From the IMG/VR virus record IMGVR_UViG_3300045391_003027: a stretch of DNA of 40,012 bases; one strand, given 5' to 3'. This document shows, one piece after another, positions 1 through 40,012 of the stretch (positions within the stretch are counted from its first letter, which is position 1; each line of letters begins with the position of its first letter). Made by a program: the position numbers and the translations under genes. This DNA comes from a virus. A model generated the notes under the pieces. It searched no databases. It had not been told where the DNA came from and saw only the letters and a list, made by a program, of their open reading frames with translations.

Positions 1-63
1 CGGACTCATGCAGCCCCCAAAGGCAGAAGAGGCCGCACCACTCCTTTTCCTTGTCGGTGTCGG
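1..63. repeat. Terminal 63-nt direct repeat, copy 1 (identical to 39950-40012); circular-closure overlap
   Basis: nt 1-63 (cggactcatgcagccccc...cttgtcggtgtcgg) match the last 63 nt of the window letter for letter. Joining the copies restores one uninterrupted minus-strand ORF. Confidence 0.95.
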
Positions 64-25308: not shown

Positions 25309-25397
25309 TCTGCCGTGACCCCCATCACCACGCCAACGACAGCGCCGATGGCGAAGCCGGCCATAAATGCGATCAGGCAGGCGTCAAATAGGTTCAC
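25305..25397 (-). CDS. Possible 30-aa single-pass membrane peptide
   Basis: GTG at 25397-25395 overlaps the GroES-like stop as GTGA. My translation is VNLFDACLIAFMAGFAIGAVVGVVMGVTAE. Its stop overlaps the next ATG as ATGA. It is too short for the ORF track. Confidence 0.3.
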   Translation of the reverse strand: MNLFDACLIAFMAGFAIGAVVGVVMGVTAE

Positions 25398-25945
25398 CGG
25401 CGCTGCTCCCCGTAGTCGAGCTCGAGCGCCTCGTACTCGGGACGCTGGTCCGGCAACTCGAACAGAATCTCGTCGGCGCGCACCATGCGGTATTCGCCAC
25501 CGGGACGCTCGTGCTTGGTGGGCACGGGGAAGCTCTCCCAGCTGCAACCGCGGGGATTCGTGCGGGGCTTGGCCACATCCAGCGACCAGTCCTGCCCCGC
25601 GCGCTCGTCGACTACCACGCACATGCCGGGCTCCACCTCCGTCGGCACGAGCGGGCCGCGACCGTCGCGCAACCGCCAACCGGGACCCGTGGCGAGCACG
25701 ATGGCCTCGCGCACGCCATTGGCCTTGCCTTGGCGGTTCGCCGGCAGCACGAGCAGGCTCCCGCTCATGCGTTCGGGCCGCGGCTTGAGATACAGCAGCA
25801 CATTGTCGTCGAGCGGGCGGATGCGGCTCGGGTGGCTATCGCCAGCAGCAGGCTGGTCGCCGGCCAGCATATCGAATAGCGGCGGAATGGTCGGAGCAGG
25901 TGGTGCCTCGCTCGGGCTCGGTAGCTCGATTGCTGGCTTGCTCAT
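25394..25945 (-). CDS. GroES/Cpn10-like co-chaperonin with a Pro-rich N-terminal extension and an internal insertion (183 aa)
   Basis: The sequence aligns by eye to GroES. IRPLDDNVLL fits IRPLxDRVLV. SGSLLVLP fits the mobile-loop AGGIVL. REAIVLATGPG fits GEVxAVGxG. EVEPGMCVVVDE fits DVKVGDxVxF. YRMVRADEILFEL fits the C-terminal strand. Confidence 0.6.
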   Translation of the reverse strand: MSKPAIELPSPSEAPPAPTIPPLFDMLAGDQPAAGDSHPSRIRPLDDNVLLYLKPRPERMSGSLLVLPANRQGKANGVREAIVLATGPGWRLRDGRGPLVPTEVEPGMCVVVDERAGQDWSLDVAKPRTNPRGCSWESFPVPTKHERPGGEYRMVRADEILFELPDQRPEYEALELDYGEQRR

Positions 25946-26647: not shown

Positions 26648-27619
26648 CTATTTCGTGCCTCCGATTGCTTGGGCCTCACGCATCAGCGCCATCGCCTTGG
26701 CGCCAGCTTCCTTGGCCGATTTGGCGGCGCGGCTTTGCCTGCCGCCCGTTTGCGCGTCGTGCTCCAGCTCGCCGATTGGCTTGAGCTTTCCCGGGGTTTC
26801 GCACTTAAACTTCAGGTCAGCGCGAAGCTTTCGGAACCAATTCGCATCCCGGCGGCCCATGCCGCCTCCGATGGTCCAATGCGTCACGAATTCCCGGGTT
26901 CCAGCGCGGATTTGCTCCGGCTCGACGCCGTACCGCTCCACGAAATCACGCACAATGCCCACGGATTCTGCCTTTTCGAGCAGATCCAGCGGACAGGTTG
27001 TGAGCTTCGTCTCCGTTGCCGCAGGCTCTGAATCGGCCGGGGTGGCGGTTGGCGCGCGCCCCTGCGCGCGGTCTCCCACCAGCACGGCTGGATTGGCTGG
27101 TACAGCACGGCTGAGCACAGAGTGACCAGTTGTGACGTGCTGTGACTGCGCGTGACTCTTGGTCACGCCTTGTGACCCGTCGTCACGTTCCGTGACAAGC
27201 TCATCCAGGAGAGAACCGGCCCGGTGCGCCGCCGCCCTTCTTGCTCGGCTCTCTCGCTGGCGCTGGGCATCGCTCTGCGTTGCCTCCTGCGCCCGGATGA
27301 AGTTGGGCACGAAAAGTACCCTGTCGTGCACGGTGACCACGCCGCGCTCTAGGAGCTTCGCGACGCCCGTGCGTGCGTGCTCCAAGGGTAGGTCGGCGAG
27401 CGCCGCCAGTGCCTCTGCGGGCTCCAGGCCCTCGAGTTCTAAGATGCCTGCCCGGTCCACCTCGAGCAGGAGGGCGTGCAGACACATTCGCCCGTCCCAC
27501 CCCAGCAGCTTCGTGGTGACCGTTTTGCGCGTGTAGATGCGCACGTAGCGTTCGTCTTCGAAGTTCAGGCCGCCCTCCGTCGCACCTTGCCGCGCACCCG
27601 CTTCGGCGGGGTCTGCCAA
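26648..27619 (-). CDS. Replication initiator or replisome-organiser-like protein (winged-helix N-terminal domain)
   Basis: ...FEDERYVRIYTRKTVTTKLLGWDGRMCLHALLLEVDRAGILEL...VAKLLERGVV resembles phage replisome-organiser N-terminal domains. The C-terminal ...EFVTHWTIGGGMGRRDANWFRKLRADL resembles Rep-type tails. The start is uncertain: the TTG at 27619 overlaps ruvC by 55 nt. Confidence 0.45.
   Translation of the reverse strand: MADPAEAGARQGATEGGLNFEDERYVRIYTRKTVTTKLLGWDGRMCLHALLLEVDRAGILELEGLEPAEALAALADLPLEHARTGVAKLLERGVVTVHDRVLFVPNFIRAQEATQSDAQRQRESRARRAAAHRAGSLLDELVTERDDGSQGVTKSHAQSQHVTTGHSVLSRAVPANPAVLVGDRAQGRAPTATPADSEPAATETKLTTCPLDLLEKAESVGIVRDFVERYGVEPEQIRAGTREFVTHWTIGGGMGRRDANWFRKLRADLKFKCETPGKLKPIGELEHDAQTGGRQSRAAKSAKEAGAKAMALMREAQAIGGTK
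27122..27196. repeat. Eight GTGAC/GTCAC (GTSAC) pentamers at exact 10-bp phasing; candidate iteron or origin array inside the replication gene
   Basis: Pentamers start at 27122, 27132, 27142, 27152, 27162, 27172, 27182 and 27192. A 10-bp period is not a codon multiple. An 11-bp direct repeat, cagcacggctg, lies alongside at 27080 and 27103. Confidence 0.6.
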
Positions 27620-28125
27620 AGCAGGTGATGCAGGTGCGGAATGCCGTGCCCGTCCAGCACCGCGTTCACGGTGCAGAAGGCGTCGGCCTGGTCGGCGTCG
27701 TCGAAGTCCCCACCCACGGTGCGCAGGGCCTCGACGACGTATTTCTTTGGGTCACCCGGCGGCTTGGCACCGAGCATCAACTTTCGCGCGTGCGCGAGAT
27801 TGACAAACTGCAGGTCGAGCCCAGCTTGGTCGAGCAGCTCGAGACGGAGCACACCGCGGAGCTCGGCGAGCGGCACCGTGCTGAACGCGCGCTGTGGCGG
27901 CAGATCTTCGGCCACCACATGCGTCGCGCCAACACGGATCAGCCACGTGCGCACGTCGCGCGCGATGTCACGGAGTCGACCCGTCACCTCGCGCGTGCTC
28001 GCGCCCTTGTGGAGTGGGACCCCGAAGCTCGTGCGCTCAACGCGCGCAAAGTCGAGGTCCCACCCTGAGGGCACAGCTACGGCGCCGAAGCCCGTGAGGC
28101 TGATATCCAGGCCGCCGATGATCAC
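27565..28125 (-). CDS. ruvC: RuvC-like Holliday-junction resolvase (186 aa)
   Basis: I re-set the start to the GTG at 28125-28123, which overlaps the upstream stop as GTGA. VIIGGLDISLTGFGAV fits the RuvC N-terminal Asp motif, and ...DDADQADAFC fits the C-terminal acidic motif. Confidence 0.6.
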   Translation of the reverse strand: MIIGGLDISLTGFGAVAVPSGWDLDFARVERTSFGVPLHKGASTREVTGRLRDIARDVRTWLIRVGATHVVAEDLPPQRAFSTVPLAELRGVLRLELLDQAGLDLQFVNLAHARKLMLGAKPPGDPKKYVVEALRTVGGDFDDADQADAFCTVNAVLDGHGIPHLHHLLWQTPPKRVRGKVRRRAA

Positions 28126-29739: not shown

Positions 29740-29779
29740 AAAAAACCGCCTGATCCGAAGTCAGGCGGTTTTTCTTTTG
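29740..29779. terminator. Bidirectional intrinsic terminator
   Basis: Perfect 10-bp stem, AACCGCCTGA (29744-53) with TCAGGCGGTT (29761-70), and a 7-nt loop. An A-run lies upstream and tttcttttg downstream, so a U-tract follows on both strands. The integrase TGA lies inside the stem. Confidence 0.7.
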
Positions 29780-30933
29780 GAACGCTTTTTCTGGGGGTCC
29801 CCCAGATCCACCGTCGCCAGCGCCGCCCGAAAGGACGGCTTCACGTAGCGGGACGTGGTGCTCAGCAGCTTGTGCCCCACCCGGTACTGGATACCCACGA
29901 TGCTCTTGCCCTGCTCGAGCTCGTGCGTCGTAAAGGCCGACCGTAGGTGTGACCCCGCAAACCGCTTGGCCGCCTCGCCCTTCAGCACCGCCGTGGCCGC
30001 CGCCTTGATGTGCGGCCGGTAGTCGTGCCAACCGAATATCAGCCCAGCGTCCGGACACACGGCGTCGAGGGCCGCCCTGGCCTTGCGCGTTAGGGGCACG
30101 TCGCGCGCCCAGCGCGCCTTGTCGATGTCCGCCGTGATGCGCAGCACCGGCGAGCCCTTGGCGTAGTGCTCGGGCACGCTGAGCTTGTCGAGCGTTGCGG
30201 GCCGGAGCCCAGTCTCGTAGCCCACCACGAAGCGCGCCCGGATCGGGAACAGCTTGGCCTTGTATGTTCGCTTGCGCGCCAGGTCGCGCCGTGGCGGCCC
30301 CTTCCGCCCGCCCCACTCCGGCAGCTTGGCGATGATGCGCAGCGTCTCCTGGGGGGAGATTGCGTCGGCCGCGGTACGGCGCCGGACGGGGTGCGCCTTG
30401 CCCGTCACGTTCTTGGGCACGCCGGCAATCGGAAATGCCGCCGGCAGCGCGCCAATTTCCTCGAGGGCACAAAACGACACCAGATTGCGGAGCGCGGTGA
30501 GCTCGTGTCGCACGGTCGACGCCAGCACCTTGCCAAGGCGCCGCCGCCGATACTCCGCGCAGCCCGCCTCGGTCAGCTTCTCGACCGACCCAAAGAACGG
30601 CACGAAATGCGAGCGCGCGTAGTCCCGCCAAACGTCCCGCGTTGGCTCCGCGTGCGTGGTTGTCAGCCATTCTTGCCATGCGCTTACGAGATCCTCGAGT
30701 GCAGGTGCACCACCGACGCGAGGTGCACGTTTGGCGATTCGGAGCTCTCCAGCTCGAGCAGCGGCGACGAGGCGCGCGGCCTCTGCGTTAGCTTTGCCCT
30801 CGTCTCTTGTGCCCGTGGACCGCTCAGTAGTGCGACCATCAGCGGTGAAGCGGGCGCGCCAGTTTTCGTTGGGCGAGTTGCGGGTGAGCGTCCAGGCTTG
30901 GTTTTTCCGTCGCTTGAGAGTGATTCTGCCCAT
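29761..30933 (-). CDS. int: Tyrosine integrase (site-specific recombinase), 390 aa
   Basis: ETGLRPATL supplies the first catalytic Arg, HLRSAFTTH the H-x-x-R motif and GHKLLSTTSRYV the His and Tyr. The N-terminal arm-type domain is MGRITLKRRKNQAW...RFTADGRTTERSTG. I took the ATG at 30933; the ORF-track start is the TTG at 31035. Confidence 0.8.
   Translation of the reverse strand: MGRITLKRRKNQAWTLTRNSPNENWRARFTADGRTTERSTGTRDEGKANAEAARLVAAARAGELRIAKRAPRVGGAPALEDLVSAWQEWLTTTHAEPTRDVWRDYARSHFVPFFGSVEKLTEAGCAEYRRRRLGKVLASTVRHELTALRNLVSFCALEEIGALPAAFPIAGVPKNVTGKAHPVRRRTAADAISPQETLRIIAKLPEWGGRKGPPRRDLARKRTYKAKLFPIRARFVVGYETGLRPATLDKLSVPEHYAKGSPVLRITADIDKARWARDVPLTRKARAALDAVCPDAGLIFGWHDYRPHIKAAATAVLKGEAAKRFAGSHLRSAFTTHELEQGKSIVGIQYRVGHKLLSTTSRYVKPSFRAALATVDLGDPQKKRSKRKTA
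29791..29808. repeat. 18-bp repeat ctgggggtcccccagatc, copy 2 (inside the integrase 3' end)
   Basis: Identical to 29585-29602. On the minus strand it encodes ...DLGDPQ... of the integrase tail. Confidence 0.85.
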
Positions 30934-31070
30934 GCGTCGAGATCCGATTCGAGGAACAGCACGCGCCGACCAATCTTCTTTGGCGTGAGCGCAGGTCGCA
31001 CGTGCGCGTCGAATGCCGCGACCGAGCACCGGCAACGTTCGGCCGCTTCGCGTTTCGTCAAGAGCCTCAC
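30684..31070 (-). CDS. Excisionase/AlpA-like HTH protein; the ORF runs 250 nt into the integrase gene in another frame
   Basis: GTG at 31070 overlaps the upstream stop as GTGA. (V)RLLTKREAAERCRCSVAAFDAHVRPALTPKKIGRRVLFLESDLDAWAESL is a typical MerR-type or Xis HTH_17 pattern. No stop occurs until 30684. Confidence 0.5.
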   Translation of the reverse strand: MRLLTKREAAERCRCSVAAFDAHVRPALTPKKIGRRVLFLESDLDAWAESLSSDGKTKPGRSPATRPTKTGAPASPLMVALLSGPRAQETRAKLTQRPRASSPLLELESSESPNVHLASVVHLHSRIS

Positions 31071-31474
31071 GCCGCTGCCTCCTGATCTAGACGGATCAGT
31101 GCGTCGAGCGCACGCGCCACCGGCCCCTCATTGCGGAACCACTCGCCCTGCTCACGATACTCGCGAAAGCAGTCGTGCAAAAAGCGCTCGAGCTCTAGGC
31201 CGCCCGGCACGCTGCATAGCAGCTGCATTTTGCGTCCGGTTGCCAGCTCGAGCGTTCGTTGACGACCGGAAACGTTATCGGACCAGCCCACCTTCACGAG
31301 ATTGTCGAGCGCGATGAAGTAGACCACTCGGCCCGACGGGAATTGGGCATCGCGCGCCGGCACCGCGTTGCCCTCGCAGGCACCGCTGGCCACCGTGACG
31401 AGCTTCCCGCCACAACGCACGCGCCACCGCCACGAATAGCGATCGCGGCGCTCTATTGAGCCGGGCGTGTTCAC
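31067..31474 (-). CDS. T5orf172 (MUG113, GIY-YIG-superfamily) domain protein, 135 aa
   Basis: GRVVYFIALDNLVKVGWSDNVSGRQRTLELATGRKMQLLCSVPGGLELERFLHDCFREYREQGEWFR fits the T5orf172 pattern (KIG..., R...L, E..LH..F, EWF). The GTG start overlaps the upstream stop as GTGA. Confidence 0.55.
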   Translation of the reverse strand: MNTPGSIERRDRYSWRWRVRCGGKLVTVASGACEGNAVPARDAQFPSGRVVYFIALDNLVKVGWSDNVSGRQRTLELATGRKMQLLCSVPGGLELERFLHDCFREYREQGEWFRNEGPVARALDALIRLDQEAAA

Positions 31475-31743
31475 GATGCCGCCTTCTGGTCGGGCACGAA
31501 GCGGCAGCCCTGCCCGCACTTCGGGACCTTGCCATCACGCACCTGGCGCCGGACATGGCCGAGCGCGCGCATGATTTCGACGCCGCAGCGGCACCGGAAG
31601 AACCACTGCGACGTGTCGCCCTTGCACTGGCGCAGCGGCGTGAGCCAGCCGTATTCGGCCGCCACGGGCTTCGCGTTACGGGCTCGCGCTCCGAGTTGCG
31701 GCGTGCCGGATAGCGAAACAGGAAGATCGCGAACGCGCGTCAC
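31471..31743 (-). CDS. Zinc-finger protein (about 90 aa) of the 'GxLT...W.C.CG...GC' type
   Basis: YGWLTPLRQCKGDTSQWFFRCRCGVEIMRALGHVRRQVRDGKVPKCGQGC is the N-terminal module common in phage endonuclease-associated proteins. GTG at 31743 overlaps the upstream stop as GTGA. Confidence 0.45.
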   Translation of the reverse strand: MTRVRDLPVSLSGTPQLGARARNAKPVAAEYGWLTPLRQCKGDTSQWFFRCRCGVEIMRALGHVRRQVRDGKVPKCGQGCRFVPDQKAAS

Positions 31744-33164: not shown

Positions 33165-33560
33165 ATGTCCCGTGCCAGGATCGGCCTGCGAATGCCGAAA
33201 GTGACCGTGGCAACACCCTTGGAAGTGACCGGTATGCCCGTTCGGTTGCACGGGGCGATGCAGGCCGTTGCTCAGGCCTCGGGGCTCAAGAAGCTCACGC
33301 AGACGCAGCTGCAGGAGCTGTCGGGCGTCGCGCAAAGTTCGATTTCGCGCCTGCTCAACAAGAAGCGCGCCGGTGGTGGGCACGTCGCGCACGCTGTCCT
33401 AATCGCCCAGGCGCTTGGCGTCCGTCCGGGTTGGCTCATCGTGGGCGAGGAGCCGATGCGTCCCGCTGGCGCGGTCGTTCCGCGGCTCCCACAGGTCGTC
33501 GATGCAGACGCGCAGCGCCCGGCGAACGTTGGCGTGGCTGCCAAACACGGTAAGAAGTAG
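33165..33560 (+). CDS. CI-like XRE-family repressor
   Basis: LTQTQLQELSGVAQSSISRLLNKKR...AVLIAQALGVRPGWLIVGEEP is an HTH_3 pattern. It is divergent from the Cro-like gene. The start is uncertain: ATG at 33165 abuts the operator, with alternatives at 33192 and 33234. Confidence 0.6.
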   Translation: MSRARIGLRMPKVTVATPLEVTGMPVRLHGAMQAVAQASGLKKLTQTQLQELSGVAQSSISRLLNKKRAGGGHVAHAVLIAQALGVRPGWLIVGEEPMRPAGAVVPRLPQVVDADAQRPANVGVAAKHGKK

Positions 33561-35122: not shown

Positions 35123-35392
35123 ATGTCTGCTGCGAAACAGATCGCTACCGAAACCGATGCGGCGACGCCCGCCGCGATCAGCCGCGAGGCGCGCGCCCAT
35201 CTGCGCGCCGTGTTCTACGACACCGTGCAAGCGCTCGCGGCGCTCGATTCTGGCGACCACTGCGGCGCCGACAACGCGCTCAAGGCCGCCATGCTGGCCG
35301 CCGCGGACGCGCGCGCTGCGCTGCAGCCGCTGCTCGCGCCGCTGTCACCCAAGGCCCAAGTCGACGCCTCACTCAAGGAGTGGCTCACATGA
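35123..35392 (+). CDS. Hypothetical 89-aa Ala-rich helical protein
   Basis: ATG at 35123 is preceded by AAGGAGGGA. Confidence 0.5.
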   Translation: MSAAKQIATETDAATPAAISREARAHLRAVFYDTVQALAALDSGDHCGADNALKAAMLAAADARAALQPLLAPLSPKAQVDASLKEWLT

Positions 35393-36846
35393 AAGACATT
35401 GTTCTCATCGATCACGGCAGCGTCTACTGGGCTGCCTGGCACTCCAGCGTGCACGAGGAGGTCAGCGCCGCGCATGACCGGTGCGTCGCCCACGTCCGCA
35501 AGATTGCCGGAAACACGAAGGCGGTCGCCATCTGCTGCGATTCGCCCAAAAGCAACCGCCGCGCGAAGTTCCCGGAATACAAGGCCAATCGCCCGGAGAA
35601 AGACCACGCGGCTATCGAGCAGCTGCAGCGCACGAAAGAGACCCTGCGCCGCGACGGCTTCCTGCTCTGGGAGGTCGAGGGCTACGAGGCCGACGACGTG
35701 ATCGCCAGCGCCGTCAAGCTCGCACTCGCCGACCCCGAAAACGGAATCACCGTGTGCACCGCCGACAAAGACCTGATGCAGCTCGTCGGTCCGCGCGTCA
35801 TCTGGGAGAGCACCCGCGTAGACCTGCAGTTGCAGGTGCTGGGCGTCCAAGAAAAGCTCGGCGTGCCGCCTGCCATGGTGCGCGACTGGCTCGCCCTCGT
35901 CGGCGACAAGTCCGACAACGTGCCGGGCGTGCCGGGGATCGGTCCCGTCAAGGCCGCGGCACTGCTGAACGAGTTCGGCAACATCGAGACGATTCTCGAG
36001 CGTGTTCAGAAAAACGTCACGCACAAGCTCTTTAGCCCGGCCATTGCCGCCGCTTTCTACGATGCGCAGAACCTGAAGAATCTGGCCATCGCGCGTGAGC
36101 TGGTGACCCTCGTCGACACGCTGCCGGTAAACTTTGACGAGATCTTCGAGGAGCGCGCATCTCAACCGCTGGTCGCGCCAACCGGGGAGTTTGACGATGA
36201 GCCGGCTCCCGCGTCGGCGCCGGTGCCCACCCCTGCTCCCCAACAGACGCCCGAGCCGCGCACCGAGCTTGTCGTCGCGCCACAGCAGCCGGCGCCTGTC
36301 ACGACTTTGGCGCCCGCGCAAAGCTCCGCTCCTTCTGCGCCGGCCCTCTCTGCATACGAGCAGCAGCTGCAGCCGCAGACGCTGAAAGCGGCCTCGATCT
36401 TGGCGGAGACGCTTTTCAATTCGCGGCTGTACCAAAAGCTCGGCAACAAAGAGGCGATCTTCGCGGTCATCCTGCGCGGGCGCGAGATGGGGCTGACCGC
36501 GCTCACCTCGCTCGACATGTTCCACGTCGTCGAGGGCAGGCCGACCATGACGGCGCACATGCTCATCTCCCGTGCGAAGCAACACCCCGACTGCAAGTAC
36601 TTCCGCTACATCGGCGGTGACGACACGTACGCGGAGTACGAGACATGGAACCGGCTCAATCCCGAGCCGACGCGGCTCAAGTACACCATCGAGCAAGCGA
36701 AGCGCGCAGGTGTCGTCAAGGCCGGTTCGAATTGGGAAAAGCGCCCCGCCGAGATGTTGCGCAAAACGTGCGGCGTGCAGCTCGCACGTATCGAATACCC
36801 CGAGGCCTTGGGTGGCCTCTACGCACAAGAGGAGCTCGCGGCCTGA
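35389..36846 (+). CDS. Fusion protein: N-terminal FEN / Pol I-type 5'-3' exonuclease, then a Pro/Ala/Gln linker, then a C-terminal RecT-like single-strand annealing domain (485 aa)
   Basis: ATG at 35389 overlaps the upstream stop as ATGA. The exonuclease motifs are LIDHGS, FPEYKANRPEK, GYEADDVIAS, TADKDLMQLV and GDKSDNVPGVPGIGPVKAA (H3TH). The C-terminus ...GLTALTSLDMFHVVEGRPTMTAHMLISRA...GSNWEKRPAEMLRKTCGVQLARIEYPEALGGLYAQEEL fits the RecT pattern W...P.EML.K....L.R...P. Confidence 0.65.
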   Translation: MKDIVLIDHGSVYWAAWHSSVHEEVSAAHDRCVAHVRKIAGNTKAVAICCDSPKSNRRAKFPEYKANRPEKDHAAIEQLQRTKETLRRDGFLLWEVEGYEADDVIASAVKLALADPENGITVCTADKDLMQLVGPRVIWESTRVDLQLQVLGVQEKLGVPPAMVRDWLALVGDKSDNVPGVPGIGPVKAAALLNEFGNIETILERVQKNVTHKLFSPAIAAAFYDAQNLKNLAIARELVTLVDTLPVNFDEIFEERASQPLVAPTGEFDDEPAPASAPVPTPAPQQTPEPRTELVVAPQQPAPVTTLAPAQSSAPSAPALSAYEQQLQPQTLKAASILAETLFNSRLYQKLGNKEAIFAVILRGREMGLTALTSLDMFHVVEGRPTMTAHMLISRAKQHPDCKYFRYIGGDDTYAEYETWNRLNPEPTRLKYTIEQAKRAGVVKAGSNWEKRPAEMLRKTCGVQLARIEYPEALGGLYAQEELAA

Positions 36847-38180
36847 TGGCAAAGAAGAAGCTTACGAAACTCACCGAGGCACAAGAGGCGCGCGTTGCGA
36901 CGTGGCGCGCGGAGTGGCTGACTCACGGCTGCTGTACCGAACGAGCGGACCGCCCGCGCGCGCAGGCCGCCATCACGGCCATGTACGAGGCAATCGGCGA
37001 GAAGGCGCCGGTGTACCTCTGGTTCGATTCGCCCATGTCGGCGTCGCTCGCCGCGGGGCTCCTGCTCTCGCTCAAGGCGAAGAAACCGCTGCGCGATCAG
37101 CTCGTCAGCCAGCTCGACAGCCAGCTCGACAGCCAGCTCGTCAGCCAGCTCGACAGCCAGCTCGACAGCCAGCTCGTCAGCCAGCTCGACAGCCAGCTCG
37201 ACAGCCAGCTCGGCAGCCAGCTCTACAGCCAGCTCGGCAGCCAGCTCGGCAGCCAGCTCGGCAGCCAGCTCTACAGCCAGCTCGACAGCCAGCTCGACAG
37301 CCAGCTCGGCAGCCAGCTCGGCAGCCAGCTCGGCAGCCAGCTCTACAGCCAGCTCGTCAGCCAGCTCGACAGCCAGCTCTACAGCCAGCTCTACAGCCAG
37401 CTCGGCAGCCAGCTCGTCAGCCAGCTCGACAGCCAGCTCTACAGCCAGCTCGGCAGCCAGCTCGGCAGCCAGCTCGACAGCCAGCTCTACAGCCAGCTGC
37501 GAGAAGATCTCAGAAGCCACGCGCGAAGCGCGGCGACCAACACGATGGCCACCAGTTGGCGCTACGGCTGGGTCGCGTTCTACAGCTTCCTGCAGGACGT
37601 TTTGGGCTTGGAGGCAGACGCCGAGGTGTTGCGGCGCCTCGGGCTTTGGAAGGAGCTCCTGCAGTCGTCCTTCTGGTTCATTCCGTACCAGGGAATGTGC
37701 TTCGTGAGCGATCGCCCGTCGGCCATCCATTGGGACGAGCGCGCGCGGCTGCATCACCCGTCCGAGGCCGCCGTGCAGTTCCGCGACGGCTACCGCTTGT
37801 TCATGTGGCACGGGACGCGAGTGCCCGAGCAATGGATTACGGCGCCCCAAAGCATCGACGTCACGGCCGCGTTGACTTGGGAAAATATCGAGGAGCGACG
37901 CGCGGCGGCCGAAATCATCGGTTGGCGCAAGGTGCGCGAGACTCTGATGGTCGAGGGCAAGGCGCGCATCATCGACGCCGACCCCGACCCCTACATCGGC
38001 ACGCTCTACGAAGTGGACTTGCCCGACTCGCCAGGCGAGAAGTTCTTGGACGTGCGCTGCGGCACAGGGCGCGACTTCACGCTGCCGGTGGACCCGAAGT
38101 CAAAGACGGCACTTGAGGCCAACGCCCGCACGTACCGGCTCAAGCCGAGCGAATACAAGAAACTCGAGGCGCGAACCTAG
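36846..38180 (+). CDS. Three-part protein (444 aa): an 84-aa N-terminal domain, a (Q-L-x-S)x33 tetrapeptide-repeat tract, and a roughly 225-aa C-terminal domain (possibly DUF6745-like)
   Basis: The ATG shares 1 nt with the upstream TGA. Only this frame gives sensible flanking domains. The C-terminal part ...VSDRPSAIHWDERARLHHPSEAAVQFRDGYRLFMWHGTRVP...WENIEERRAAAEIIGW...GTLYEV...ART matches a conserved family as I recall it. Confidence 0.6.
   Translation: MAKKKLTKLTEAQEARVATWRAEWLTHGCCTERADRPRAQAAITAMYEAIGEKAPVYLWFDSPMSASLAAGLLLSLKAKKPLRDQLVSQLDSQLDSQLVSQLDSQLDSQLVSQLDSQLDSQLGSQLYSQLGSQLGSQLGSQLYSQLDSQLDSQLGSQLGSQLGSQLYSQLVSQLDSQLYSQLYSQLGSQLVSQLDSQLYSQLGSQLGSQLDSQLYSQLREDLRSHARSAATNTMATSWRYGWVAFYSFLQDVLGLEADAEVLRRLGLWKELLQSSFWFIPYQGMCFVSDRPSAIHWDERARLHHPSEAAVQFRDGYRLFMWHGTRVPEQWITAPQSIDVTAALTWENIEERRAAAEIIGWRKVRETLMVEGKARIIDADPDPYIGTLYEVDLPDSPGEKFLDVRCGTGRDFTLPVDPKSKTALEANARTYRLKPSEYKKLEART
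37098..37499 (+). repeat. Tandem 12-bp repeat array, about 33 units of CAGCTC-NNC-AGC
   Basis: By my manual count there are 33 full units plus a terminal CAGCTG. Nine of the 12 nt are invariant in every unit. The variable codon is GAC, GGC, GTC or TAC (D x11, G x10, V x5, Y x7). Confidence 0.9.
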
Positions 38181-39621: not shown

Positions 39622-40012
39622 TCGGCATCCGTGGGCGGCGGGCTGGGCTCGGTGTCGTGCTGTAGCAGCTTGTCGATGGAGTAGAAGCAAGTCGGCTTGT
39701 TGAGCGGGATGCGTGTGCGGAGCACGACGGTGTCGGCGGCCTGGTTACCGTCGCAGCTCGTGAATGTGCCCGCGTCGGGGTCGACGCTGATGACGACGGC
39801 GTGGTGACGGTAGGGCCTGTCGTAGTAGGCAATGTCGCCGGGATCCGGCAGACGCGTCTTGGCCCAAGGCACATTGGGACCGAGCTTGTCGAGGCGCTGC
39901 TCCTCGCAGAAGCCGCCGCCGCTGCGCCAAAACACGGCCAGGGCGATGCCGGACTCATGCAGCCCCCAAAGGCAGAAGAGGCCGCACCACTCCTTTTCCT
40001 TGTCGGTGTCGG
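39618..40012 (-). CDS. Endolysin, C-terminal part (CHAP/NlpC-P60-like); the joined product is about 176 aa
   Basis: The ORF is open to the right edge and stops with TGA at 39620-39618. The tail ...GDIAYYDRPYRHHAVVISVDPDAGTFTSCDGNQ fits the His and Asn/Asp half of a Cys-His papain-like amidase. Confidence 0.6.
   Translation of the reverse strand, partial: DTDKEKEWCGLFCLWGLHESGIALAVFWRSGGGFCEEQRLDKLGPNVPWAKTRLPDPGDIAYYDRPYRHHAVVISVDPDAGTFTSCDGNQAADTVVLRTRIPLNKPTCFYSIDKLLQHDTEPSPPPTDAE
39950..40012. repeat. Terminal 63-nt direct repeat, copy 2 (identical to 1-63)
   Basis: Direct comparison of both window ends gives 63/63 identity. Confidence 0.95.

Follow-up and report, generated by a model that had tools for sequence, protein, structure and literature searches.

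A family of phage proteins that joins a FEN/Pol I-type 5'-nuclease to a RecT/Redβ-type annealase core in one polypeptide

Phage exonuclease–annealase pairs are the basis of recombineering. They have been described as two-component systems, in which the partner proteins and the host's protein for binding single-stranded DNA, SSB, are recognised through the C-terminal domain of the annealase (PMC11611040). The expected logic of the lambda Red (Exo + Bet) and Rac RecE + RecT systems is resection followed by annealing, and Redβ's C-terminal domain normally binds both lambda Exo and SSB, the latter contact having been reported as required in vivo (PMC11611040). In phage T7, the duplex-specific 5'–3' exonuclease gp6, a member of the flap endonuclease (FEN) family, is needed for recombination, no T7 recombinants being formed without it, and it is stimulated by gp2.5, an annealing-proficient protein that binds single-stranded DNA (ssDNA), through the acidic tail of gp2.5 (PMC4124056). 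In this study, we analysed a stretch of 40,012 nucleotides from the IMG/VR virus record IMGVR_UViG_3300045391_003027, referred to as a whole as the window, and we describe a gene on its + strand (35389..36846; a single open reading frame (ORF) of 485 codons and a TGA stop) whose product joins a FEN/Pol I-type 5'-nuclease to a RecT/Redβ-type annealase core. A first-pass annotation made from the sequence alone had proposed that one polypeptide fuses an exonuclease of this type to a RecT-like annealase, and the present analysis bears this out: the ORF is uninterrupted, and the Pfam hidden Markov models (HMMs) for both halves pass their cut-offs.

The fusion resembles the lambda Red and RecET systems in that its annealase has a core of the RecT/Redβ superfamily and in that the early region of a temperate phage encodes a 5'–3' nuclease together with an annealase, here within one ORF. 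It differs from them in that its nuclease is a PIN-like/H3TH FEN and not a PD-(D/E)XK enzyme, in that it is one polypeptide with a linker predicted to be disordered, and in that its annealase is without the exonuclease- and SSB-binding C-terminal domain; furthermore, a Gam-like gene was not detected in the genome of this phage. The fusion therefore breaks two features by which EATR/SynExo systems are described, namely two separate polypeptides and a nuclease of the PD-(D/E)XK class, as it is one chain in all 217 two-domain members of the family and its nuclease half matches FEN/PIN-like families exclusively in Pfam, PHROG and NCBIfam. With T7 gp6 and gp2.5 it shares the coupling of a FEN-family 5'–3' nuclease to an ssDNA-binding/annealing protein. 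However, gp6 is a protein separate from gp2.5, the latter has an OB fold and is not a RecT/Redβ protein, and T7 is a virulent phage with its own replisome, whereas the phage carrying the fusion is temperate and no replisome genes were detected in its genome.

In the ORF listing, the + strand frame is open from a GTG at 35380 to 36846, which would give 488 aa, while a start at the ATG at 35389 gives 485 aa. The ATG is the biologically sensible start because a Shine-Dalgarno-like AAGGAG (35375..35380, + strand, read from the sequence) lies 8 nt before it, because it overlaps the stop of the upstream gene as ATGA, and because homologues start at the equivalent Met ('MKEVLLIDHGS...'). A start at the GTG is unlikely since the AAGGAG overlaps this codon. 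At the other end, the TGA stop (36844-36846) overlaps the ATG of the next gene as TGATG, and the stop/start overlaps at both ends indicate that the gene is translationally coupled on each side. The GC content at third codon positions (GC3) is 0.73-1.00 in each 30-codon window of the whole frame, linker included. An identical protein, P0001, encoded on a 40,030-bp contig, is present in the JGI collection, where its name is only '5'-3' exonuclease'.

The N-terminal half (aa 1-255; 35389..36153, + strand) was assigned as a FEN/Pol I-type 5'-nuclease domain, with a PIN-like N-domain and an H3TH region, on the basis of Pfam, PHROG and fold matches. PF02739 (5_3_exonuc_N) covers aa 5-141 with 84.3 bits against a cut-off of 34.3 (E = 1e-23), PF01367 (5_3_exonuc/H3TH) covers aa 159-250 with 72.9 bits against a cut-off of 40 (E = 3e-20), and phrog_107 'exonuclease' spans aa 3-255 (E = 4e-33). 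The motifs that had been quoted for this half in the first-pass annotation were all found, YKANR at aa 64-68, EADD at 100-103, DKDLMQL at 126-132 and GDKSDNVPGVPGIG at 172-185. All nine acidic metal ligands are present (D8, D51, E100, D102, D103, D126, D128, D173 and D176), which we take, by mapping from the Taq and T5 FEN residues, to be the full set of a two-metal FEN active site. In a 37-sequence family alignment D8 is conserved to at least 90%, and the other eight, D51, E100, D102, D103, D126, D128, D173 and D176, do not vary.

Searched against PDB sequences, the family profile matches Pol I of M. smegmatis and Taq at E ~1e-44, and also Xni, mycobacterial FenA, T5 FEN and T4 RNase H. A Foldseek search of aa 1-255 against the PDB returned PLE1, ExoIX, T5 FEN and M. 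smegmatis FEN at E = 1e-17 to 1e-13, with target-normalised TM-scores of 0.64-0.88, the upper value being reached with ExoIX. Identity between the FEN half and the N-terminal region of bacterial polA is 37-41%, and a profile search of genome contigs with the full-length alignment listed 80 loci, all of which match the FEN half only, the ubiquitous Pol I 5'-nuclease pattern. Two NCBIfam models for Pol I stay below their cut-offs, with 158 bits where 720 are required and 142 where 600 are, and align over their N-terminal ~250 profile positions only (the 158-bit alignment to DNA polymerase I corresponds to aa 42-250); by these models, polymerase and 3'-5' exonuclease domains do not follow the 5'-nuclease. 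The 5'-nuclease of Pol I, ExoIX (Xni), T5 D15 FEN and M. smegmatis FenA are thus the best sequence or fold matches of aa 1-255, which has the full carboxylates and the H3TH motif GDxSDNxPGVxGIG; however, the fusion has no polymerase domain, unlike Pol I, and none of these four enzymes has an annealase domain. Taken as a sequence, the FEN half is a complete FEN/Pol I 5'-nuclease with an intact active site, and nuclease activity is predicted.

The C-terminal half (aa ~323-485; 36355..36843, + strand) was assigned, again from Pfam, PHROG and fold matches, as a RecT/Redβ-type annealase core without a C-terminal partner-binding tail. With PF03837 (RecT), the query and 24 of 24 C-terminal halves of the family score above the gathering threshold. 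Against a cut-off of 24, this model gives 27.6 bits at aa 430-483 when the whole protein is searched and 29.6-30.8 bits when the C-terminal half is searched alone. The alignment is limited to the last ~55 residues (profile positions 130-187 of 198), and the remaining domain is backed by PHROG families and by the fold: phrog_561 and phrog_4171, both 'RecT-like ssDNA annealing protein', span aa 331-483 at E ~1e-10, and Foldseek matches 7ujl_A, which is Redβ(1-177) on DNA, at E = 3.2e-5 with a TM-score of 0.57 over 155 columns of a 161-residue target. In BFVD, the C-terminal domain matches 'RecT family' proteins at E = 4e-9 to 6e-7. A sequence profile of this half weakly matches the same Redβ N-terminal domain, 7UJL (E = 0.024), and the alignment sits on the W-x3-P-x2-MLR-x-K...AR...G-x-Y motif to which the first-pass annotation had drawn attention and which reads W-EKR-P-A-EML-R-K...YP...GLYAQEEL in the query. 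Tested against the annealase families in these ways, the RecT-like assignment stands, with Pfam RecT, PHROG 561 and 4171 and the Redβ structure all in agreement.

Some of these scores could be read differently, namely as those of a decayed RecT remnant that does not anneal, in which case the protein would be a 5'–3' exonuclease with a DNA-binding appendage. The Pfam RecT score of the whole protein is just over its cut-off and covers a partial profile, and NCBIfam bet_lambda reaches 27-30 bits against a cut-off of 77. We consider decay very improbable, however, as in an alignment of 24 sequences the RecT half is the best-conserved part of the protein, with a mean column identity of 60% and 18 invariant positions, and as the PHROG RecT families align over ~150 residues and Foldseek over 155 of the 161 residues of the Redβ DNA-binding domain. 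The sequence and the structure model thus point to a RecT/Redβ core that is intact and strongly conserved and for which annealing is predicted, and both domains of the fusion appear intact and under constraint. A C-terminal tail is typical of the RecT/Redβ family, though not strictly defining; here the query ends 2 residues past the core, and in the family the median is 2 residues and the maximum 24. For the fusion protein, no NCBIfam model reaches its cut-off, and because of this, annotation pipelines label it only as a '5'-3' exonuclease'.

Being of low complexity and rich in GC, the linker between the two halves is the sort of sequence in which indel errors occur, and a missed stop codon or frameshift within it might join two separate genes in an assembly. 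The first-pass annotation had itself named this as one way in which the fusion could prove false. No such stop or frameshift was found, and the survey of homologues shows them to be fused. At least 120 full-length homologues are among the matches listed in a large protein collection (JGI, Logan, ENA and NCBI assemblies), with identities of 43-69% and a coverage of 97-100% in all but one. Using HMMs of the two halves, both domains were found in a single chain in 121 of 121 proteins (the 120 best listed homologues and one cluster mate) and in 96 further representatives of 50% identity clusters. This gives a total of 217 two-domain sequences, 198 of them complete, which reach down to ~35% identity, fall into ~100 clusters at 50% identity, and are independent, in frame and of many linker lengths. 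When the RecT half alone was searched with phmmer against 1.84 billion cluster representatives, 9,928 matches were obtained at E <= 1e-3, 2,673 at <= 1e-10 and 108 at <= 1e-30, and ~103 of the best 150 matches are the C-terminal end of proteins of ~440-630 residues. In IMG/VR, loci were found with RecT-specific patterns, and FEN motifs are present in the same ORF in 13 of 13, most of them on contigs of 37-47 kb.

Three short RecT-only entries (P0128, P0190 and P0155) were considered as possible split genes and rejected: each lies at the end of a contig of 824-972 bp and its reading frame runs off the edge, and the upstream frame of P0128 reads 'LVTLRTDATIPFSEVF', which is the end of a FEN domain. 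These checked entries are therefore truncations at contig ends. Taken together with the coding-like GC3 that runs through the linker, these data leave a sequencing or assembly artefact with a negligible probability; a frameshift is excluded, and the fusion is real and conserved. One homologue is labelled as coming from a Candidatus Dormibacteraeota metagenome-assembled genome in an NCBI cluster look-up, and this is probably a binned phage contig.

The linker itself (aa ~256-322; 36154..36354, + strand) was delimited from AlphaFold and composition and is acidic and rich in Ala, Pro and Glu. AlphaFold2 run on the alignment gave a mean pLDDT of 88.4, with values above 90 in the two domains and below 50 at aa 266-317, and this segment is predicted to be disordered. 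By HMM boundaries, the linker of the query is 65 aa long, in frame and with a GC3 of 0.73-0.80; in the 198 complete family members it measures 30-175 aa (median 67), its net charge has a median of -7, and Ala, Pro and Glu make up 15%, 14.5% and 13% of it. At its start (36154-36230, aa ~256-280) we noticed a semi-conserved acidic/aromatic patch, GEFDDE in the query and DADFDE, EDYMxID or DMGDIDE in relatives, which resembles the acidic C-terminal tips of SSB and of T7 gp2.5. In the case of gp2.5, it is this tail that has been reported to stimulate gp6, a FEN (PMC4124056). It is pure speculation, but the patch might contact the FEN domain or host proteins that bind the SSB tail.

From about E = 1e-33 downwards, the search with the RecT half brings in a second class of proteins, of 240-540 residues, in which the core is N-terminal and is followed by ~100-250 residues (for example P0244, P0213 and P0186). 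These standalone RecT proteins share 40-45% identity with the whole 160-residue core, and most of them carry the Pfam RecT domain, as the fusion does. Unlike the fusion, they have the N-terminal core with its extension, and P0244 and P0213 adjoin a separate exonuclease gene: P0244 is followed by a PDDEXK_1/DUF2800 nuclease gene, and the gene ahead of P0213, whose stop overlaps the start of P0213, encodes a 230-aa protein with matches to two PHROG 'exonuclease' families, 298 and 69. Both loci are ordinary two-gene exonuclease+RecT modules. The earlier remark that the exonuclease class of the fusion differs from that of the usual partners is supported by its nearest standalone relatives, which adjoin exonuclease genes of another kind, PD-(D/E)XK in one case. 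Judged from the sequences, the fusion family has lost the C-terminal tail and carries a covalent FEN instead, and the simplest reading is that a covalent tether took over from a non-covalent one and that a FEN displaced the separate exonuclease (PD-(D/E)XK where typed). Among the standalone proteins, P0255 (537 aa), P0244 (437 aa), P0238 (379 aa) and P0203 (368 aa) have unannotated and unusually long C-terminal extensions of 190-380 residues, and these could be other fusions on the C-terminal side.

As to the function of the fusion, we lean towards the view that it is a one-polypeptide exonuclease–annealase recombinase of the EATR/SynExo type that works by resection and annealing. In a first step, the FEN-type nuclease would bind an end or a nick in double-stranded DNA (dsDNA) and remove the 5'-ended strand. 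The RecT-like domain, held on its flexible, acidic linker of ~65 residues, would then be loaded in cis on the 3' single strand as it emerges, where it would oligomerise and anneal this strand to complementary ssDNA, either the other resected end or a lagging-strand template. Finally, the same FEN active site could trim a 5' flap at the junction to make it ligatable. The covalent tether would stand in for the non-covalent contact between the Redβ C-terminal domain and its exonuclease, a contact that is thought to be similar for RecT, and this idea is consistent with the missing C-terminal tail. T7 gp6 provides a precedent for a FEN-family nuclease that drives phage recombination, and T5 exonuclease, which is also a FEN, serves in vitro to uncover homologous ends so that they can anneal (PMC6379645). 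We infer that the biological role would lie in recombination-dependent replication, repair or mosaicism of the temperate phage.

The main rival to a resect-and-anneal function is that the FEN domain acts solely as a flap endonuclease after annealing, cutting off a displaced 5' flap or a 5' overhang to allow ligation of the joint. The protein would then correspond to a Pol I in which an annealase takes the place of the polymerase, and the RecT domain would use ssDNA made by another nuclease or by replication. This would fit with the similarity of the FEN half, which is greatest to the N-terminal domains of Pol I, to ExoIX and to mycobacterial FenA (158 bits; TM-score up to 0.88), and with the helical-arch stretch between YKANR and EADD, which in our own reading of the alignment is of a Pol I-like length. 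However, HMM scans of the ORFs of the whole genome detected no other exonuclease, PD-(D/E)XK gene or SSB, which extends the first-pass statement that no separate exonuclease or SSB gene is visible nearby, and no other nuclease was seen that could make the single strand. In addition, the FEN domain fills the slot that in the closest standalone relatives is taken by a separate exonuclease of a resecting type (PD-(D/E)XK in one), and resection of duplex ends is known from FEN-family enzymes, T7 gp6 among them (PMC4124056). We therefore regard flap trimming as the sole activity as rather unlikely; the two roles are compatible with each other and not mutually exclusive.

Several points nevertheless weigh against a resect-and-anneal function. 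The nearest FENs, the 5'-nuclease domains of Pol I and ExoIX, are mainly flap and nick nucleases and not processive end-resecting enzymes. As the fusion family is without the SSB-contacting C-terminal domain, access to SSB-coated DNA would be unexplained. A 1:1 covalent stoichiometry would place a nuclease on every annealase subunit of a filament, an arrangement for which we know of no counterpart. Furthermore, about two thirds of the ORFs in the genome are without annotation, and an unrecognised partner is possible among them; and both the exonuclease and the annealing activities are predicted from sequence and fold. A stronger version of the resect-and-anneal proposal, which we put forward only tentatively and consider doubtful, is that the fusion is a self-sufficient single-gene dsDNA recombinase, in which one chain resects, loads in cis and anneals and which requires neither a partner exonuclease nor a contact between a C-terminal domain and SSB. 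If this were true, the protein would be unusually portable between hosts, and it would represent the first natural covalent exonuclease–annealase and the first RecT-family recombination system built on a FEN nuclease.

It is also conceivable that the fusion is a replication enzyme, whose FEN domain clears Okazaki RNA primers while the RecT-like domain serves as an ssDNA-binding tether to the lagging strand. The phage FENs T4 RNase H, T5 D15 and T7 gp6 have roles in primer removal (PMC4124056), and the FEN half matches phage FEN structures of this kind. However, the HMM scans of the ORFs in the complete genome revealed neither a DNA polymerase of the phage nor a primase or helicase, and host Pol I would be available for this task anyway. 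Moreover, it is the whole Redβ-like core that is conserved, beyond what a DNA-binding patch would need, and the nearest relatives of this core sit in bona fide exonuclease+RecT modules. A purely replicative role thus seems improbable to us.

The first 63 bases of the window (1-63) are identical to its last (39950-40012), and the window therefore represents a complete genome of ~39.95 kb, either circularly permuted or assembled as a circle, or terminally redundant. The phage is temperate and podovirus-like. Genes were detected for a portal, a large terminase, an SU10-type adaptor, a GP4-type fibre, tailspike-like proteins, helix-turn-helix (HTH) regulators and a tyrosine integrase (29761-31035, - strand). 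An HTH repressor-like gene (33165..33560, + strand; phrog_4 and phrog_8, transcriptional repressor/regulator, E = 8e-12) heads the + strand early block that holds the fusion gene, and relatives repeat this layout of a divergent HTH gene, then small genes, then the fusion gene. The fusion gene thus belongs to an early operon and follows an HTH repressor-like gene, a position that lambda-like recombination genes also have. The sole other recognisable recombination nuclease of the genome is a RuvC-like Holliday-junction resolvase (27565..28125, - strand), which the first-pass annotation had also listed; it matches phrog_159 at E = 1.8e-15, and searches of Pfam and of PDB sequences gave no match for it. 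A gene called on the + strand at 27625-28068 from GC3 was discarded as a shadow ORF of this resolvase gene.

Immediately upstream of the fusion gene lies a gene for an Ala-rich, helical protein of 89 aa (35123..35392, + strand), whose stop provides the ATGA overlap; it had no match among PDB sequences and no homologue in 18 related loci. The downstream gene, which starts within the TGATG overlap, encodes a DUF6745 protein (36846..38180, + strand) and is common to only 2-3 related loci, and hence is not a conserved partner. Within it we observed a 12-bp tandem repeat (37098-37498, + strand; 33.4 copies, 92% matching, consensus CAGCTCGACAGC), which encodes SQL[D/G/Y/V] tetrapeptides in the N-terminal half of the DUF6745 protein and also holds the opposite strand open (ORF 36819-37850, - strand); this could be a length-variable region.

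Partner genes were sought in two ways: all window proteins were compared with 15 loci by tblastn, and the ORFs within 5 kb in 18 loci were clustered all against all. No neighbour gene family is common to more than 4 of the 18 fusion loci, and for this reason the fusion gene looks self-contained, a module passed around among mosaic phage genomes. Two ORF clusters that did occur in more than 4 loci were rejected as artefacts, since they consist of shadow ORFs read antisense within the fusion gene. Three loci (L093, L098 and L100) have a DEAD/ResIII helicase, and in two of these a VRR-NUC nuclease lies beside it within 3 kb of the fusion gene (L098, 11778-13850; L100, 4283-6473). The helicase and VRR-NUC nuclease may form an accessory branch-processing module in part of the family. 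Consensus scans for promoters and terminators gave nothing above the shuffled expectation. Elsewhere in the window, a protein of 183 aa (25394-25945, - strand) has a Cpn10/GroES-like domain (PF00166, 28.9 bits, above the cut-off) and may be a phage-encoded co-chaperonin, and a protein of 150 aa with MUG113/T5orf172 (GIY-YIG-like) domains is encoded at 31067-31519 (- strand), adjoining the integrase region.

The fused arrangement was found in none of 50,697 GenBank phage records (872 matched, none at a coverage of at least 80%) and in none of 72,556 plasmid records. Among the best 50 structure matches in BFVD, which holds viral UniProt proteins, the only two-domain match is A0A6J5MUB0 of an uncultured Caudovirales phage, which has both domains (E = 1.6e-40, 35% identity over 493 columns); it is uncharacterised and is labelled 'PIN_53EXO domain containing protein', a name that covers the nuclease half only. 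A FEN–RecT fusion is not described in the full-text literature searched or within PMC11611040, PMC8093625 and PMC5512222; a passing mention elsewhere is possible. The family also exposes a blind spot of annotation, with more than 200 database entries that carry only the name '5'-3' exonuclease'.

While the function of the fusion is inferred, the family should be of interest to the phage recombination and recombineering field. As a compact, partner-free protein of ~485 residues from GC-rich, metagenome-derived phages, the fusion is a candidate single-gene tool, which might be used for dsDNA recombineering where lambda Red or RecET work poorly or in compact genome-editing fusions, an area of current interest (PMC12825301). 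For the biology of these recombination systems, the family suggests that the problem of coupling a nuclease to an annealase can be solved in another way, by a covalent flexible tether, and that an unrelated fold can occupy the place of the nuclease, with a FEN instead of a PD-(D/E)XK enzyme, which would make it a clear instance of gene fusion together with non-orthologous displacement. The family may thus be regarded as a natural experiment that asks whether loading in cis is the essential role of the contact between exonuclease and annealase, whether the contact with SSB is dispensable, and what effect a 1:1 stoichiometry has on the filaments.

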